NCBI GenBank assembly: GCA_945482995.1
Contig: CALYRM010000002.1
Coordinates: forward strand, 11,355-75,354
Direction: 5' to 3'
Source of the DNA: an uncultured Clostridia bacterium
Lineage (GTDB): Bacteria; Bacillota; Clostridia; Christensenellales; CAG-1252
DNA length: 64,000 nt
The notes below the pieces were generated by a model. The model searched no databases and had not been told where the DNA came from. It saw only the letters and a list, made by a program, of their open reading frames with translations. Position 1 is the stretch's first letter. Every line of letters starts with the position of its first letter. The translations under genes were made by a program, and so were the position numbers. Below are positions 1,767-9,112 of this stretch, piece by piece.

Positions 1767-2483
1767 TTATTCCTGCGGTTTTTCTTTTAGTCTATTTTCA
1801 TCCGTCGGCAACTTGTTTGTGTCACCTTCGTTTATTAATGGAGTAAATATATTTTCTTCCGACGGTAAATCTGTTTCGTGTTTTTCTTCGGGTATTTCTC
1901 CGCTTGGTTCAATTTTCTTCGCTTTTACGGGAGTGAAAAACATCTTATTTAGCTTGATAAGCACTTTTGATAGCGGTGTAAATGCGAACGCAAATAACAA
2001 CAGGTTACAAACTATTTGGGTAAAGTAGAACGCCACACCACGAAGATAGTATGCCGCAAATTCTTTTATTAACGCTTGTATATTCGTATAGAAAAGTAAA
2101 TCGACTACGCTTGTCAGCACACCAAAAAAAACAGTCAAGGCAACGGCAACTGCCGTTACAATTGCCCTATGCCTTATCTTCTTTTTGCTTAGCAGCATAA
2201 AAATCAAGGCGACTAAGGGCCAATAGATAAAATACGATATTACCCAAGAGCCGAAACCCCAAATTAGCGGTTCAATCGCCACAAAAAGCGCTACGGAAAT
2301 CACTCCATAAAACCCAAAAACATAGCCGAATAGCGCGCATAAAAGAGTTACAACCTCAACATTCGGAAGGGCTGCAAGCGCAAGCTTACAGCCCTCTATC
2401 AGTGCGGTGCAAACTGCTATAAGCGCTACACGCTTAGCGCTTTTTAAAGCATATTGAGTTTTAGGAGTGGAGTTTGCCGTCAT
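1767..2483 (-). CDS. polytopic membrane protein, ECF-transporter S-component-like (possible cobalamin-related substrate-binding subunit)
   Basis: About 5-6 predicted TM helices. Lies 4 nt downstream of the DUF4430-like gene and under the cobalamin riboswitch. Long acidic C-terminal tail. Confidence 0.5.
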   Translation of the reverse strand: MTANSTPKTQYALKSAKRVALIAVCTALIEGCKLALAALPNVEVVTLLCALFGYVFGFYGVISVALFVAIEPLIWGFGSWVISYFIYWPLVALIFMLLSKKKIRHRAIVTAVAVALTVFFGVLTSVVDLLFYTNIQALIKEFAAYYLRGVAFYFTQIVCNLLLFAFAFTPLSKVLIKLNKMFFTPVKAKKIEPSGEIPEEKHETDLPSEENIFTPLINEGDTNKLPTDENRLKEKPQE

Positions 2484-2486
2484 TTA

Positions 2487-2909
2487 CTAAAATTGTGAAA
2501 TCATGAATACGTAAGTTGTACCCTCGGTCAAAGGTAGTTCATTTAAGCCCAACGTACAAGAGCCGTATGTTACGCCGTCGTACTCATATGTACCCCATGT
2601 GGAGTTGGTGTTGGCAGGGTCGTTTGAATACATCATCCAATATTCTTTTGCATTGCCGTCCGCATGACGACCATTGATCGTAACTACCATTGTTCCATCC
2701 ATTTCATAGGTCAAAAAACCCTTTTCCACAAGAACATCAAAATAGTCCCTTAGTGTTTTACCTTCGATATCAGGCATAATTTCACTGTCGAGAGGAATCA
2801 TAATGCAGGTTTCTTCCATTTGAACGGGGTTTGTTGGTTCACAGGCAACAAAGCTAAGAGCTAAAACCGCAAGAACAACAACTGTTGTAATTAATAAACT
2901 TTTCTTCAT
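2487..2909 (-). CDS. DUF4430-like (transcobalamin-like fold) lipoprotein
   Basis: Lipobox LSFVAC after a signal peptide. MVVTINGRHADGNAKEYWMMY fits the DUF4430 'sIng...W.y.vN' pattern. RBS aaaggag upstream; B12 riboswitch upstream. Confidence 0.6.
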   Translation of the reverse strand: MKKSLLITTVVVLAVLALSFVACEPTNPVQMEETCIMIPLDSEIMPDIEGKTLRDYFDVLVEKGFLTYEMDGTMVVTINGRHADGNAKEYWMMYSNDPANTNSTWGTYEYDGVTYGSCTLGLNELPLTEGTTYVFMISQF

Positions 2910-3377: not shown

Positions 3378-6300
3378 TCAATTAACGACATAATTTTTTA
3401 TTATTTCGACGTTTTTCTCGATGTCGTCCAAGTAGACATATTCGCCCTTATTATGCGCATTGATGGCGCCCGATGATAAAAGTATTGTCGGAACATTCAG
3501 TTCATTAGCAATAACGTTCGCATCGCTCAAACTCTTTTCAATTTCAACTCGCTTGCTCGTTGCACCTGCTTTTTCGATTGCCGATTTCAAACGAGCGATA
3601 AAATCGGAATTTTCCGTACTAAATTCATGCGCTAAGATCTTTCTTGAATTGACGGTAGCGTTTAATTCTTTTTCGTTCAAGGTTTTGATTATATCTTGTA
3701 TCTTGCGTGTAATTTCATCTTCGTTCTTACCATATAACTTCAATATAAAGGTATTGTCGCTTGTTTCGGAAAAACTTATATTCATATTTTCCAAAAACTC
3801 TTTTGCTTTCATAGGTGCAAATAGATTAACACATTCAAGTCTAGTGCCTTTGGTCGAATATACGCCTATTCTATCGTTAATATCTACAACCAAACATTCC
3901 TTGACGGTCTTAGCAAGTTCATCCTTTCTTTGTGGTGTCAAAAACTCACTAATACCCTTAGAACCACGCTCTTCTCCACCCGAAATAAGCACTACTATGT
4001 TCTTTTGTTTAGGTTTCCCCTCTTGTTCCTTTAAAGCGGATACAATTCCATAGAGAACGCACGCAACGCCTGCTAAATCGTCAGCGCCACCATACACGGA
4101 AAACGCTCTACAAGGCGTGCTGTAATCGTCAACGTAAATGGAATTATCCGACAAATCACATTTATTGCCGTTCTCGTCATAATGAGAATGTAAATCGTAG
4201 TGCATAGAAAACAGCACTGCGCTCTTTTCCTTTTTCTTTCCGTTCTCGATATTTTCGCCAATAGTGCTTGTTGGTTCAAATCTAATTGCTATCGTTGGAT
4301 ATTTACCGTTATTTACTATTTCTATAAGATACCTTGTGCTTGTCAAGCCGTTTGCGTTATAGCAGTAGGATAAGAAATTAACCAAGTCCGCATATATTTC
4401 TTCAACCGTGTTGCTATGTTTGATAAGGTCCTTATATAAAATATGACAATGATTATAAATCTTATAAATTTGCGGAATTACGTTTACAAGGTCATACGCA
4501 AAACTATATTCTGAGATATTCGCCAAAGGCAGTATAGCATTGTGCATTTTGTGTTCCTCACCTTTAACCTTGGAATATATCCAACCATGAGAAATCATAA
4601 AACGATTCCAGCGCTCGTGTTCTAAAACAACAAGTTTCCGAACGCAATCGAGATTAAGGCTATACTCTCCCTTTTCATTTCTGCAGAAATGTTTAACCGC
4701 TCTGCGCATAATACGTGAATAAACATTGCTTATGCGATTAGTTTCTTTTTTAAAGTTGGTTAGTTTAAAGTATGACAAATTATATTTGATTGAATCAATT
4801 TCAAGTTTATCCGCTTTATTTCTTTCCTCGTAGATTTTGGAGAATAATTTGTCAAGTCTCAATTCGCCATTCACGTCTCTTTCGACGCAGAATTTGTCTG
4901 ATAGAGTCGTCATTGCCAAATTAAATCTCGCCTCAAGAGTAGAATTGTTACTCTTTTTAATCTGTAACTCGTCAATTTTATGAGTCATATTGATATAATT
5001 GGTATTGTACTCATACATTGCCGAATGGTCTATGATTTTGTCAAAAGTATAGATATCTTCCTTTGAGCCGAAGGGGAATACAACAACGTTTTTAAACAAG
5101 CCGTATTTAAAATCGGTTTCATTCCAATTCAACTTACGTAAATTGTTTTTATCACGAATATTGACAGCTATACACTGTCTGCGCCTATTGTGTATTCTTT
5201 CTCCGCTATTAATTTCAAGGTACAGTTCTCTTTTTATATCGTCAATAATGGTGTTGGCAATGGCTATATTTGTGCTGTCGTTTCCTAAAGCGATAACTAT
5301 GATGTTATACTCCTTATTTTTCTTGAAGCTTTCACCGTTTGCGGCAAACTCTTTGCCTGTTTTCTCGTCGAAAAATTTAATAAAGCTTACGCTTGAACAA
5401 GAATCTCTATGGAATACAATTTTCGGGAATTGCATTTTAGAGCAGAATTCTTCATAAGAGTAGTTGCCTTTACCATCGTTTTTCAAAAATTCTTTGTAAT
5501 AGTTTTTAATTTCTTGTTCGTTCACGTCAATATCGGAACTTGAAATCGGATAGCAATGGTATAGCGGATGATTTTTGGCAAACATACCCTCTATTTCTTC
5601 AATATTAGTATCAAATACATCAGCATAAAACCCGGTAGAACTTCCATCGTCTTCAAGGTGCGGACTTGCATAATAAAGAGCATGCAAGGCATTTTGACCG
5701 TTACCGCCAAAGCCCAAAATCAAGGCCTTATATTCGCTATTTCCTTGCCATTCGTCAACCGAAGCCAAGTGTTCCCAAATACTGCTTGCGCCGAGTTTTT
5801 TATATCTTTCGTCAATTAGCGACAATGAAGAAAGATATGCTTCATTTACCAAATTAACCTGCAATATCGAATACACGTACCTTACTAATATATTTTTAAA
5901 TTCTTCATCAAAGCCTATTTTGAATAGGTCATCGTAATTCTGTTTGTTCGCTTTTATCAAATCATTTAAGGTGAAGTTCTCGTTCAAGTTATTTTCAGAC
6001 AATCCGAAAGAAGCAAAAAGATTTTTTGCCGTTCTTGCACCAAAATATGCACTAGCGGGGCGGCTCAATAGATGCTCGACAATTTTATTAACGCGCTCGT
6101 CAATTTGAGTTGAATAATATTGATAGTTGACTTCGCTTTGCGTAAGGATATATTGTTCGGTTATTGTCCAAGAAGCTTTTAATCCGATGTTATATAATAG
6201 TAAATATATTTTTTCTTCGATTTCCTTTCTTTTCAACTCACCTTTGGAAACCGTAGATTTTTTAAGCCAAGACGTATAAGAGTTTTTTAATTTTATACTG

Positions 6301-7334
6301 TTACGCTTATAGAAAAGGTCGTCGATAATCATATCGATTTCGGAAAAAGCGTCAAAGGTGTTTTTTTCCTGCATAGGCTTTTTGTATTCGTCTAAGGTAA
6401 AATAAAACTCCATTATACGCGTTCTATTTCCTTTATTCCCAAGCAGTTTTTTTGTTGTTGTATTGGGTATTTCGACGTTTTTTAGTTCGCAGTCTATGGC
6501 TTCTTGATTCAATATATTCGTTGGTTGACTCGCTAAAAGCGATAAATTCTTTCTTCCAAGATTAAGCCTTGAAAAAAGCGATTTAGTTGTATCCTTGCCC
6601 TTCATCAATGAATAATAATAGAAAGACTGGCTCATAACCTCACGACAATTCGGATCGTTTCTCGAAAAAGTCGGAATATTATTGCCTGCAAAAAGAATCA
6701 GTGCTTTACGGGGCTTTTTAAGATTAGGACTTTTGTTTTTATTATTTTTATATTCGACCAACTCCTGTTGGTGATGGGCGGCAATACTCTCGGCAAGCAA
6801 TAATGCGTCGGGAGTTAAACAATTAAAAATGTATACGTCACGTCTTCTTTTAAGAACGTTGATAATAACCAAGCTAAAAATTTCATAGCTTGCTTTTGCG
6901 GTGATTACGCTTAATACGATCAAGCCCGCTATGATGGACGAACCATAATACAAACATACTACAATTCCGCCGCTAATTGACTCCATCCCGAAAGGCAAGC
7001 CCTCGAATTGTAAACCGCCTATCATTGAGTAAATTGCGGAAAGCGAATACCCCATATACTCGACAAAACTAAAATTTTGAACGTTACCGTTTGCGTCCTC
7101 GGCAAGGAACGGCAATATAGCAAGTTTAACGCCAACACTCAACGCCATTGCTATAAGTGCAAAAATGAGTTCTATACTGTACTTAGCGCTAGGCTTTTTA
7201 CGTCTTACCACAAAGTAGGCGACCATGAGTAACAAATAAGCAGCCACGCAAATTGCAATAGCACATATTAATCCCAACACATATTCGCCTACGTTTATTG
7301 ACGATTTGCTTAATAATAGTCTAAGCGTTGTCAT
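3378..7334 (-). CDS. 1318-aa multidomain membrane protein: N-terminal TM bundle, Rossmann (TrkA-N/RCK-like), RyR domain, C-terminal M20/M28-like metallopeptidase domain
   Basis: About 5 N-terminal TM helices. GxGxxG ILGFGGNGQNAL (nt ~5689-5728) and IIVIALGNDSTNIAIAN. RyR-like LEHERWNRFMISHGWIYSKVKGEEHKMHNAILPL (nt ~4555-4630). M20-type metal motifs MHYDLH, GGADDLAGV, SGGEERGSKG, and a C-terminal NAHNKGE. Confidence 0.6.
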   Translation of the reverse strand: MTTLRLLLSKSSINVGEYVLGLICAIAICVAAYLLLMVAYFVVRRKKPSAKYSIELIFALIAMALSVGVKLAILPFLAEDANGNVQNFSFVEYMGYSLSAIYSMIGGLQFEGLPFGMESISGGIVVCLYYGSSIIAGLIVLSVITAKASYEIFSLVIINVLKRRRDVYIFNCLTPDALLLAESIAAHHQQELVEYKNNKNKSPNLKKPRKALILFAGNNIPTFSRNDPNCREVMSQSFYYYSLMKGKDTTKSLFSRLNLGRKNLSLLASQPTNILNQEAIDCELKNVEIPNTTTKKLLGNKGNRTRIMEFYFTLDEYKKPMQEKNTFDAFSEIDMIIDDLFYKRNSIKLKNSYTSWLKKSTVSKGELKRKEIEEKIYLLLYNIGLKASWTITEQYILTQSEVNYQYYSTQIDERVNKIVEHLLSRPASAYFGARTAKNLFASFGLSENNLNENFTLNDLIKANKQNYDDLFKIGFDEEFKNILVRYVYSILQVNLVNEAYLSSLSLIDERYKKLGASSIWEHLASVDEWQGNSEYKALILGFGGNGQNALHALYYASPHLEDDGSSTGFYADVFDTNIEEIEGMFAKNHPLYHCYPISSSDIDVNEQEIKNYYKEFLKNDGKGNYSYEEFCSKMQFPKIVFHRDSCSSVSFIKFFDEKTGKEFAANGESFKKNKEYNIIVIALGNDSTNIAIANTIIDDIKRELYLEINSGERIHNRRRQCIAVNIRDKNNLRKLNWNETDFKYGLFKNVVVFPFGSKEDIYTFDKIIDHSAMYEYNTNYINMTHKIDELQIKKSNNSTLEARFNLAMTTLSDKFCVERDVNGELRLDKLFSKIYEERNKADKLEIDSIKYNLSYFKLTNFKKETNRISNVYSRIMRRAVKHFCRNEKGEYSLNLDCVRKLVVLEHERWNRFMISHGWIYSKVKGEEHKMHNAILPLANISEYSFAYDLVNVIPQIYKIYNHCHILYKDLIKHSNTVEEIYADLVNFLSYCYNANGLTSTRYLIEIVNNGKYPTIAIRFEPTSTIGENIENGKKKEKSAVLFSMHYDLHSHYDENGNKCDLSDNSIYVDDYSTPCRAFSVYGGADDLAGVACVLYGIVSALKEQEGKPKQKNIVVLISGGEERGSKGISEFLTPQRKDELAKTVKECLVVDINDRIGVYSTKGTRLECVNLFAPMKAKEFLENMNISFSETSDNTFILKLYGKNEDEITRKIQDIIKTLNEKELNATVNSRKILAHEFSTENSDFIARLKSAIEKAGATSKRVEIEKSLSDANVIANELNVPTILLSSGAINAHNKGEYVYLDDIEKNVEIIKNYVVN

Positions 7335-8610
7335 TTTCGTTCTCCTTTTCTTTCAGTTTTATGTCGATTTGTTTATCAAGCAAGAGCCTTTGCTTATGAA
7401 GTTCCGCCTTGTAATCTGTATATTTATCTCGTCTTTTCTTTGCAACAAAGTATACAACGATAAGCGCTATCGATATTACCAATAAGACAATCCCCAATGC
7501 TAGCGGTGTTTCCCAACTTCCGCGCGTAGTATCGACGCCGGAGAGAGCTTCCTGCGCAGATATCCTTATAGTATCTACTTCTCTAATTGTACCTGCAAAC
7601 TCAATATCTCTTTTCGCATCCTCAATTATTTTGTCAAATTCACGACGAGCGGCTTTTGTTGCCCCGCTGTAGCTTTCGCTTGCCAAGAATGAATCCAAAA
7701 TCAAACATGCGGCTTCCTTTGCCGATTCAAGAAGCTCACTTTCGCCCGAAAATACTTTGACGTCAACTTTTTCAATCTGGGCGATTGTGCTGCTAACAAT
7801 TTGGTTATATTCATTGACGACGGCAAAAACCGACAAACTTTCAATTTTTTCAATGGCGGATTGGTGAATCATGGTTATATCCAAGGCGTTCGACTGCGAA
7901 TACCCCATACTTACAACCCTCTTAAACCATTCGTTATACAAGGTTTTATCGGCGTAGATATAGTAATTTTCGATATCATTTTCAGGTATTATTGGAAGAT
8001 TGGCTTTTTGCAAATATTCATTAACCCTTGCGACTATGCACCTATCAATTTCTTTTACTGCATTAAGGGTATTTGTCGAACGCATTTCGTCGGCTTTATC
8101 GCGATTGTCAAGTTCCCTTATTGCATTTTTGTAATCGGCATAAACTGCGTTATAGTCAGCCCCTACCGCCAAATTTTCTATTATCGTGATTGTTTGAGAA
8201 TAAAGTTCTTCAACCGCTTGCCACTGCTCGGGATAAAATAATATGGTTTTATCTTCAATTTTCACACAATATGAAGCATCATCAAGACTTTCCTTAATTT
8301 GAATCGTCAGCTTTTCGATTTCATAATAATGGCAATATTGATAAAATCTTTGTTTGCTGTCAGCATCAATCAAAGCTTCAGTACTAGCATTAGCAAGTAT
8401 CTGTTCGCCCTTGTTGATTAATCCGTAATATTCGGGCGTTACTAAATCGGAAGTATCGTTTAAGTGCTTTTGATATAAACTTTCAAGACTACTAAGCAAG
8501 GCGTTAAAGTCGTCAATTTGAGATTGGTAATCTTCGGCAGCACAACAAAAAGGAGTCATCAAACTAAACAACGAAATTATAATTAGTATGCAGATTAATG
8601 TTTTTTTCAT
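7321..8610 (-). CDS. secreted, mostly helical protein with a C-terminal TM anchor; function unknown
   Basis: Signal peptide MKKTLICILIIISLFSLMTPFCCA. C-terminal TM LALGIVLLVISIALIVVYFV followed by KKRR. Its 3' end overlaps the next gene's start by 14 nt. Confidence 0.55.
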   Translation of the reverse strand: MKKTLICILIIISLFSLMTPFCCAAEDYQSQIDDFNALLSSLESLYQKHLNDTSDLVTPEYYGLINKGEQILANASTEALIDADSKQRFYQYCHYYEIEKLTIQIKESLDDASYCVKIEDKTILFYPEQWQAVEELYSQTITIIENLAVGADYNAVYADYKNAIRELDNRDKADEMRSTNTLNAVKEIDRCIVARVNEYLQKANLPIIPENDIENYYIYADKTLYNEWFKRVVSMGYSQSNALDITMIHQSAIEKIESLSVFAVVNEYNQIVSSTIAQIEKVDVKVFSGESELLESAKEAACLILDSFLASESYSGATKAARREFDKIIEDAKRDIEFAGTIREVDTIRISAQEALSGVDTTRGSWETPLALGIVLLVISIALIVVYFVAKKRRDKYTDYKAELHKQRLLLDKQIDIKLKEKENENDNA

Positions 8611-8790: not shown

Positions 8791-8885
8791 ATTGCGCATT
8801 TGCTAATTGTTCTATACTTAAGATATAGTATAACCATTTATAACACATAAAACCTTAAAATGTCAATATGTGCATAAAACAAAAT

Positions 8886-8922: not shown

Positions 8923-9112
8923 GATAAGGGGGAAAATTAGGTCAATATCTCTATTGACATTGATATTATAAGTTATTTGTCGAAGTTTGTCAATATGCTT
9001 TTTTAAAAAAGTTCGTACTTTGCTGTATCTAAAAAAACAGTGGTATCTTTGTTTTACAACGGATTGATATTTATGAGCTTCTTCGACTACGCTCGAAACA
9101 ACAACGTTTGGA

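Follow-up and report, generated by a model that had tools for sequence, protein, structure and literature searches.

What might be accomplished by a protein that unites membrane helices, dinucleotide-binding-like folds, a RyR domain and a metallohydrolase in a single chain is the question raised by a large open reading frame (ORF) in a contig of an uncultured Clostridia bacterium of the Christensenellales (assembly GCA_945482995.1, contig CALYRM010000002.1, positions 11,355 to 75,354). This stretch of 64,000 nucleotides (nt) is referred to below as the window, and all coordinates are counted from its first letter. Our analysis indicates that the ORF and the gene preceding it (7321-8610 and 3378-7334) constitute a predicted two-protein membrane complex belonging to a rare, uncharacterised family of Clostridia. 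The best reading, for which we see about as much chance of being right as of being wrong, is that of a channel-like membrane complex under nucleotide regulation, to which a predicted-active hydrolase is tethered. The large protein is a divergent relative of proteins built in the order K+ pore, Rossmann, Rossmann and RyR. What sets it apart from an RCK-type channel architecture with an RyR module is a non-canonical membrane part, together with a partner of its own and an M20 hydrolase that is obligately associated. The gene pair and the modules identified, with the evidence used for each, are as follows (aa, amino acids; AF2, AlphaFold2):

7321..8610, minus strand: partner gene, 429 aa, type-I membrane protein (translation)
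7321..7334, minus strand: 14-nt stop/start overlap of the partner gene with the large ORF (from coordinates)
3378..7334, minus strand: large ORF, 1318 aa, ATG start, comprising a membrane module, two Rossmann-like domains, one RyR repeat and an M20 hydrolase (ORF list, translation)
6852..7334, minus strand: membrane module, residues 1-161 (hydropathy, charge distribution, AF2 helices)
6996..7037, minus strand: conserved motif AIYSMIGGLQFEGL, residues 100-113, between two acidic loops (kept across 19 family members)
5775..6842, minus strand: Rossmann-like domain 1, residues about 165-520 (AF2 beta-alpha pattern)
5025..5738, minus strand: Rossmann domain 2, residues 533-770 (G541-x-G543-x-x-G546, with D575 at the end of strand 2)
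4470..4802, minus strand: single RyR (Repeat12-type) repeat, residues about 845-955 (family profile against the PDB; H906, W909, H931, D948)
3381..4460, minus strand: PepT-like M20 dinuclear-metal hydrolase, residues 959-1318 (Pfam, PepT profile, motif alignment)

The ORF had first been proposed in a sequence-only reading, and it proved to be real once its strand was corrected to minus: it is present in a single copy in the genome, contains no internal stops and is preceded by GGAG 8 nt 5' of its ATG. All of the motifs quoted in that reading were recovered from the 1318-aa translation, at these positions:

residues 536-553: KALILGFGGNGQNALHAL
residues 677-697: NIIVIALGNDSTNIAIANTII
from residue 902: VVLEHERWNRF...ISEY
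residues 1044-1049: MHYDLH
residues 1082-1090: GGADDLAGV
residues 1118-1127: SGGEERGSKG
residues 1292-1300: NAHNKGEYV

The overlap of 14 nt with gene 7321..8610 upstream was likewise exact, and the translational coupling suggested on that ground is plausible, the overlap between partner stop and core start being retained at 11-17 nt in four related loci (L001, L004, L006 and L069). Here and below, the core denotes the protein up to the end of its RyR part (residues 1-965), as distinct from the M20 hydrolase.

The family to which the core belongs is small. Among 5.8 billion proteins, the close relatives formed 16 clusters, and in an exhaustive profile search, 188 representative clusters passed E < 1e-30 and 1221 passed E < 1e-3. 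The full-length relatives found among species genomes came from gut metagenome-assembled genomes, mostly of Christensenellaceae, with others assigned to Christensenellales or unclassified Clostridia. The core family was present in 13 of 28 genomes sampled from the window's family and in nine of 251 from its order (four of 136 genera). Weaker profile matches consisted of proteins of ~515 aa from Lachnospiraceae, Butyrivibrio and Solobacterium, which bear a TTVGYGD pore (Pfam Ion_trans_2), a GxGxxA Rossmann and an RyR domain.

On the single sequence, the RyR domain model PF02026 scored 16.0 bits (17.6 for the fragment) and thereby stayed below its gathering score (Pfam cut-off 27.4). A family profile, built from residues 525-965 together with 22 relatives and compared with the PDB, retrieved the RyR1 chimera 6uhi with an E-value of 6.2e-20, the R12 repeat of human RyR3 (6uha) with 2e-10 and the Bacteroides 'putative ryanodine receptor' (3nrt/4n05) with about 2.5e-9, and 19 of 23 relatives matched PF02026 individually (best E 4.4e-6). 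The RyR assignment is therefore right, being borne out at the level of the family profile (E 6e-20) with the single sequence below the Pfam cut-off. The residues H906, W909, H931 and D948, which show at least 90% conservation across the family where they are not invariant, lie at offsets 0/+3/+25/+42, identical to those of H75, W78, H100 and D117 in the phage protein RyDEP. According to a 2026 preprint, these four RyDEP residues hold ADP-ribose (ADPR), H75 and D117 serve as the catalytic dyad of the RyDEP glycosidase, and RyR domains bind signals of the cyclic ADP-ribose (cADPR) type, which RyDEP binds or cleaves (PMC13232231). By analogy with phage RyDEP and animal RyR R12, in which the corresponding residues hold ligands of the adenine-nucleotide or ADP-ribose type, the predicted pocket is probably functional, and the RyDEP-type catalytic H/D pair is retained in it. 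The Repeat12 domains of animal RyR R12, B. thetaiotaomicron 3NRT and phage RyDEP thus share with the window protein both the profile match and the spacing of the four ligand residues; whereas RyDEP and the animal forms occur as a small soluble dimer or in tandem within a channel of 5000 aa, the window protein is a large membrane protein that carries one repeat at its end. A Foldseek search of the model of residues 525-965 against viral structures placed a phage RyR-domain protein only at rank 6 (E 0.23) and was not usable.

Between the membrane part and the RyR repeat, two Rossmann-like modules were recognized where a single Rossmann segment had been noted before. The first is degenerate, without GxGxxG and with long variable inserts, and begins directly after the last transmembrane (TM) helix; in the second, G541, G543 and G546 are invariant and D575 is nearly invariant. 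A GxGxxG motif followed by an acidic residue characterizes the nucleotide-binding RCK/KTN domains of KtrA/TrkA. A first AF2 model of the core (residues 1-965) was multi-domain with a mean predicted local distance difference test (pLDDT) of 66.8, and Foldseek returned nothing below E 0.09 from the PDB, RyR3 R12 appearing only at E 0.4. The model of residues 525-965 reached a pLDDT of 81 and a predicted template modeling score (pTM) of 0.84, and its highest-probability Foldseek matches were RCK domains, namely those of MthK (4l75/2aem, 0.97), the CASTOR gating ring (0.90) and BK (0.57), at E-values of 0.03-0.09 and template modeling scores of 0.3-0.4, with Rossmann folds of dehydrogenases scoring alike. 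Pfam TrkA_N (PF02254) gave no match to the window protein at E <= 0.1 and matched three of 23 relatives at E >= 0.04. Given the weak structural E-values and the missing TrkA_N match, the earlier description of this region as RCK-like is plausible but not established.

The membrane module had been described as a bundle of about five TM helices, which the hydropathy analysis did not bear out. Three strongly hydrophobic segments (residues 19-43, 54-77 and 120-161) were found, together with a mildly hydrophobic, conserved amphipathic helix at residues 93-113, which lies between TM2 and TM3 and is flanked on both sides by acidic loops devoid of K and R. The loop at 44-53 carries a charge of +5 and that at 162-175 a charge of +4, and by the positive-inside rule this distribution would place the N-terminus outside and the C-terminus inside and would leave helix 93-113 unable to span the membrane. 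We infer from this topology a TM, re-entrant helix and TM arrangement similar to that of pore-loop channels, in which AIYSMIGGLQFEGL is a candidate re-entrant pore loop replacing TVGYGD. The membrane part is also the best-conserved region of the whole family, with polar residues conserved within its helices.

Module order and profile comparisons connect this architecture to true K+ channels. In K+ channel-Rossmann-RyR proteins (L030, L034 and L060), we observed the same succession of membrane part, degenerate Rossmann, GxGxxG-type Rossmann and RyR, and the same EHERW..F...GW.Y....H..L.P...YD pocket as in the window protein. Alignment of the core family with these proteins by hhalign gave a probability of 98.7% (E 1.5e-16) over the end of Rossmann 2 and the RyR domain, and a second link (86%, E 5.5e-6) in which VYIFNCLT..LLLAESI is aligned with WYVFSE..LA following the K+ channel inner helix. 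Since the order of modules is shared and the profiles are linked, the window protein is best regarded as a divergent offshoot of the pore, Rossmann, Rossmann and RyR superfamily without the K+ signature. The differences are equally clear: the K+ channel-RyR proteins have two TM helices and a canonical TTVGYGD, whereas the window protein has IGGLxFEGL instead, one additional N-terminal TM helix, long inserts, a dedicated type-I partner and, in one clade, the M20 hydrolase. With the RCK-gated channels (MthK, the gating rings of BK/Slo1 and CASTOR, and TrkA/KtrA), it would share a Rossmann regulatory domain right after the inner helix, and like them it has Rossmann modules in tandem; unlike them, it has neither a K+ filter nor a Pfam TrkA_N match, and it carries additional RyR and M20 modules. 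In the literature searched, we found no experimental characterization of the K+ channel-Rossmann-RyR proteins.

The hydrolase at the C-terminus was supported by several comparisons. Pfam Peptidase_M20 (PF01546) matched residues 1082-1316 at E 8.8e-11 (42.5 bits against a cut-off of 24.6), M28 matched at E 2.9e-6, the M20 and M28 matches together falling within residues 1033-1316, and the nearest solved structure by profile was Peptidase T 3gb0 (E 3.6e-8). Upon alignment to the PepT motifs, the putative metal ligands are H1045, D1085/D1086 (GGADD), E1122, D1151/D1154 (VVDIND) and H1294, with H1045/D1047 forming HxD and E1121 as the putative catalytic residue; the HxD, GGADD, GxEE, VVDIND and NAH motifs did not vary when fused and separate M20 forms were aligned. 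The M20 assignment and the intactness of the metal ligands, both put forward earlier from the motifs, were thus supported, and this part of the protein is apparently a divergent M20 with a complete dinuclear-metal site. All motifs of the Peptidase T/M20B, DapE and ArgE enzymes (HxD, GxDD, xEE, D and the C-terminal H) are represented, a lid-sized insert lies between motifs four and five as in the Peptidase T/M20 group, and the best NCBIfam similarities were to the DapE and PepT-like models. No NCBIfam equivalog was reached, however, with DapE PRK08651 at 46 bits (cut-off 381) and the PepT-like model at 43.5 bits (cut-off 274); scores so far below every curated cut-off make the protein a member of no named M20 equivalog, and its substrate is not inferable from them.

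Unlike Peptidase T, DapE and ArgE, the window M20 is joined to the gene of a membrane protein or overlaps it. The fused form occurs in the window protein and in P0003 and P0004, whereas in L001, L087 and L088 a separate M20 gene of 351-354 aa overlaps a core gene of 882-888 aa by 8 nt. In the core-gene tree, the fused (window, P0003) and split forms make up one clade, to which an M20-less clade is sister, and the fused P0004 branches below them; this pattern indicates that the association of M20 and core is old in this clade and was followed by fission and loss. Free-standing M20 proteins of this lineage formed three clusters among the 5.8 billion proteins, each encoded directly 3' of a core gene with the 8-nt overlap, and a further 27 genomes of the window's family contained none. 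Beside the window's own cluster, the same proteins included three fusion clusters, none of them described in the literature searched, which agrees with the earlier remark that no RyR-peptidase fusion is known to have been described. As this M20 lineage was found only fused to the core gene or overlapping it, the hydrolase and the membrane protein probably work together, and this is the strongest functional statement that the data allow.

The upstream gene encodes the second component of the predicted complex. Its product has a signal peptide, an extracytoplasmic helical domain of ~340 aa and, after a single C-terminal TM helix, a short, basic tail in the cytoplasm, and it belongs to no Pfam, NCBIfam or PADLOC family. 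A homolog lies directly 5' of the core gene, mostly with overlapping stop and start, in eight related loci (L001, L004, L006, L007, L009, L069, L087 and L088), so that inspection of the neighborhood of 7321..8610, which the sequence-only reading had advised, revealed a pairing conserved in the closer relatives. A short form of 187 aa in L068 has kept no more than the final hairpin of helices and the TM helix, which points to these elements as the conserved contact part. More distant core relatives have no partner; instead, two ClpP genes stand upstream or small overlapping genes downstream.

On the reading that we prefer, the large protein would be oriented N-out/C-in, and its TM, re-entrant helix and TM unit would form a conductance with the non-canonical filter IGGLxFEGL, the single-pass partner being an outside-facing auxiliary or sensor subunit. 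Nucleotide at the Rossmann 2 and RyR pockets would gate the membrane part. The tethered M20 would act at the cytoplasmic face of the channel on a peptide or amide substrate, and it may either be controlled by the same ligand or supply or remove a ligand.

Several findings weigh against this reading. The helices of the membrane part were modeled by AF2 with a pLDDT below 50, its comparison with K+ pores by hhalign was not significant (probability 0.1%), the selectivity-filter signature T-V-G-Y-G-D is absent from the 1318-aa protein, with AIYSMIGGLQFEGL at the corresponding position, and Pfam Ion_trans, which covered the S5-P-S6 region, attained E 0.019 and 14.6 bits against a cut-off of 25, among other membrane-protein noise. 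Since these comparisons were not significant and the membrane part had no match in the PDB, the pore is argued from architecture and topology only. To this may be added that RCK and RyR domains were matched structurally with weak E-values, and that most members of the core family have no M20, which makes the hydrolase an accessory that is dispensable for core function.

In parallel, we observed that core-bearing genomes also encode TIR proteins. The test was unplanned, and its Fisher statistics ignore kinship between genomes. The counts were as follows:

window's family, 28 genomes (TIR_2 genes): core with TIR 13, core without TIR 0, TIR without core 3, neither 12; Fisher p 1.5e-5
one genus within that family: core with TIR 5, core without TIR 0, TIR without core 1, neither 8; Fisher p 0.003

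Across the 251 genomes of the order, all nine core-bearing genomes were TIR-positive, two of them from other families, compared with 76 of 251 overall, and among all core-bearing genomes sampled, 15 of 15 had TIR genes at a base rate of about 30%. Cas1 and HsdS, taken as controls, displayed no comparable link to the core. The TIR proteins are diverse across genomes and unlinked to the core, those of the window's own genome being encoded on contigs C12, C97 and C1, and no TIR gene adjoins the core gene in the window operon or in the related loci examined. Nor does any single TIR ortholog track the core: the TIR-PP2C protein of this genome has a full-length relative only in G022. That protein (contig C12:15894-18404, L082) is an 837-aa fusion of a helical region, TIR and a PP2C phosphatase, and a second TIR protein (contig C97, L083) has ~820 aa with a zinc-ribbon, TIR, a coiled/TPR-like region and four C-terminal TM helices. 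We regard the association between core and TIR as real but unexplained. A precedent for the combination is Thoeris type X, composed of the TIR protein ThsB and the 'ion channel' effector ThsK (bioRxiv 10.64898/2025.12.03.692087), in a paper where 'RyR' occurs 0 times. There, a membrane protein of the ion-channel type acts downstream of TIR enzymes, and core-bearing genomes here are always TIR-positive; unlike Thoeris type X, the window locus has no TIR in its operon or on the same contig and lies outside any defense island.

Three other explanations have to be set against the channel-like complex. The pair could be a membrane-anchored sensor or enzyme without a channel, in which the TM helices and the partner form a signaling unit, the outside domain of the partner senses, the Rossmann and RyR modules act as allosteric nucleotide sensors, and the output is M20 or, in the M20-less relatives, another bound protein. 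Such a view accords with a membrane part that resembles no pore family significantly, with a partner whose large extracytoplasmic domain and short cytoplasmic tail recall receptor-accessory pairs, and with the genes of ~290 or ~150 aa that overlap the 3' end of distant relatives at the position of M20. We nevertheless consider it rather doubtful. True K+ channel-RyR proteins have their modules in the same order, down to the Rossmann strand that immediately follows the last TM; no other part is as well conserved as the membrane helices, which keep polar residues beyond the needs of an anchor; and the topology demands a non-spanning helix between TM2 and TM3. An artifactual fusion is far less credible still: the sister lineage has two genes overlapping by 8 nt, which one frameshift could join, so that an error of sequencing or assembly that removed a stop codon between neighboring genes, or pseudogene decay, might be invoked. 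The fused frame recurs, however, in independent assemblies, in P0002 (98% identical, 15 member sequences), P0003 (50%, nine) and P0004 (39%), which argues that the fusion is not an assembly artifact, and with the linker and all catalytic motifs conserved and internal stops lacking, we assign this explanation a negligible probability.

The TIR data bear on the remaining alternative, in which the complex is the effector arm of a TIR-based, Thoeris-like system: unlinked TIR proteins would make an NAD-derived signal, the RyR pocket would bind or cleave it, the membrane part would depolarize the cell, and M20 would be an added effector or a signal-processing enzyme. TIR_2 genes in 13 of 13 core-bearing genomes of the family as opposed to 3 of 15 core-less ones, the order-level figures, the Cas1 and HsdS controls without such a link, the conserved RyDEP dyad in a domain type that binds cADPR-like signals (PMC13232231) and the example of a TIR and ion-channel pairing in Thoeris type X (10.64898/2025.12.03.692087) are all consistent with it. 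We judge it quite unlikely in view of the location of the TIR genes on other contigs, never adjoining the core gene in the loci examined, of the missing ortholog that would track the core, of the absent PADLOC match, of a syntenic housekeeping neighborhood in place of a defense island, and of statistics that are blind to shared ancestry. A more far-reaching reading can be formulated, to which we likewise attach a low probability: the family would be a chromosomal RyR-domain-gated cation channel answering an NAD-derived messenger (of the ADPR/cADPR type) from unlinked TIR proteins, coupled in the window's clade to an M20 amidohydrolase that is active in the response. The unimpaired pocket residues, with the RyDEP-type H/D pair among them, and the TIR genes in all 15 genomes with the family are compatible with it.

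The limits of the transcription unit were examined in the regions flanking the two genes, where the following features were located:

8965..8993, minus strand: sigma-70-like consensus promoter TTGACA-17-TATAAT, 5' of the partner gene (pattern scan, consensus match only)
2487-2909: DUF4430 lipoprotein gene, downstream of the large ORF
1767-2483: 238-aa gene, downstream of the large ORF

At most about 45 nt after the partner-gene promoter lies a strong hairpin with a T-run (8922-8886, minus), with a second TTGACA near 8867; it is possibly a terminator of the upstream gene that overlaps the promoter region, or else a leader/attenuator. Immediately 3' of the stop of the large ORF, we found a perfect TTGACA-17-TATAAT promoter (3370-3342, minus), then an element resembling a cobalamin riboswitch (3332-3175, minus; 22.5 bits, E 0.0011, below the Rfam gathering score of 31.5) and, 3' of the latter and 5' of the DUF4430 gene, a terminator-like hairpin (3083-3056, minus); an Rfam scan of the whole window at the gathering threshold gave 0 matches. 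With another promoter, a riboswitch-like element and a hairpin located downstream, the predicted transcription unit comprises the two genes from 8610 to 3378. The DUF4430 and 238-aa genes were rejected as operon members on account of this consensus promoter, sub-threshold cobalamin riboswitch and terminator-like hairpin, and the upstream genes of 450 and 1237 aa were rejected as members of the unit, as they adjoin the core gene in none of the related loci. In six loci, one M20-less subfamily among them, a DUF4430-type lipoprotein gene, mostly with a gene of 239-266 aa, was seen just 3' of the core gene (window 1767-2909; L001 14135-15284; L006 14400-15527; L068 5105-5560; L087 7482-8711; L088 7207-8436), and this adjacency may reflect either retained synteny or a functional link. 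The surroundings of the core gene are of housekeeping character (Spo0A, tRNA synthetases and ClpP) and syntenic across species, with no defense island, and PADLOC returned no match for the 1318-aa ORF or five neighbors.

Among the wider relatives, further arrangements were observed. In Lachnospiraceae and Solobacterium, the canonical K+ channel-Rossmann-RyR genes mostly form pairs, often with overlapping ends, with a gene of ~610-640 aa that carries a Rossmann and RyR module and no Pfam-detectable pore (L030 6981-12099 and about 20 similar loci: L028, L031, L033, L036, L039, L046, L048, L049, L053, L055, L056, L058, L059, L062-L064, L066 and L067). A distant subfamily with a core of ~850 aa has two tandem ClpP protease genes directly 5' of the core and a ~290-aa gene overlapping its 3' end (L010 3964-5075; L011 3015-4099; L014 8707-9975; L017 8896-9984), a further case of a protease associated with the family. 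The small genes of distant relatives that overlap the 3' end of the core at the M20 position (~290 or ~150 aa) exhibited no Pfam, NCBIfam or PDB similarity, and the proposal that an enzyme at the 3' end of the core is a general feature of the family was not supported, these overlapping genes having no family or structure similarity. Members of ~1500 aa (P0105, P0106 and P0135) have an N-terminal extension of ~70 aa and a long extra region, and they gave no Pfam match anywhere in their length, which suggests that further modules are attached to this scaffold.

Bacterial RyR-domain proteins have been given a biochemical meaning only recently, through the phage protein RyDEP. The gene pair offers a compact test case for the role of the domain in cellular membrane proteins, as it brings together a channel-like protein with its RyR pocket intact and a further nucleotide site, an outside-facing partner and, uniquely, an obligately associated metallohydrolase. 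If the messenger-gated reading held true, the family would provide a bacterial counterpart of the disputed link from cADPR to the ryanodine receptor, as well as a bacterial ligand-gated channel with a built-in enzyme (a 'chanzyme'); the TIR link, if upheld under phylogenetic correction, would tie the family to NAD-derived signaling outside the classical defense islands. Should all such readings fail, the fusion would still be a rare one, in a gut lineage without cultured members. The pattern of fusion and fission, of the Rosetta-stone kind, makes an enzyme assay a direct way of learning what is sensed or processed throughout the family.

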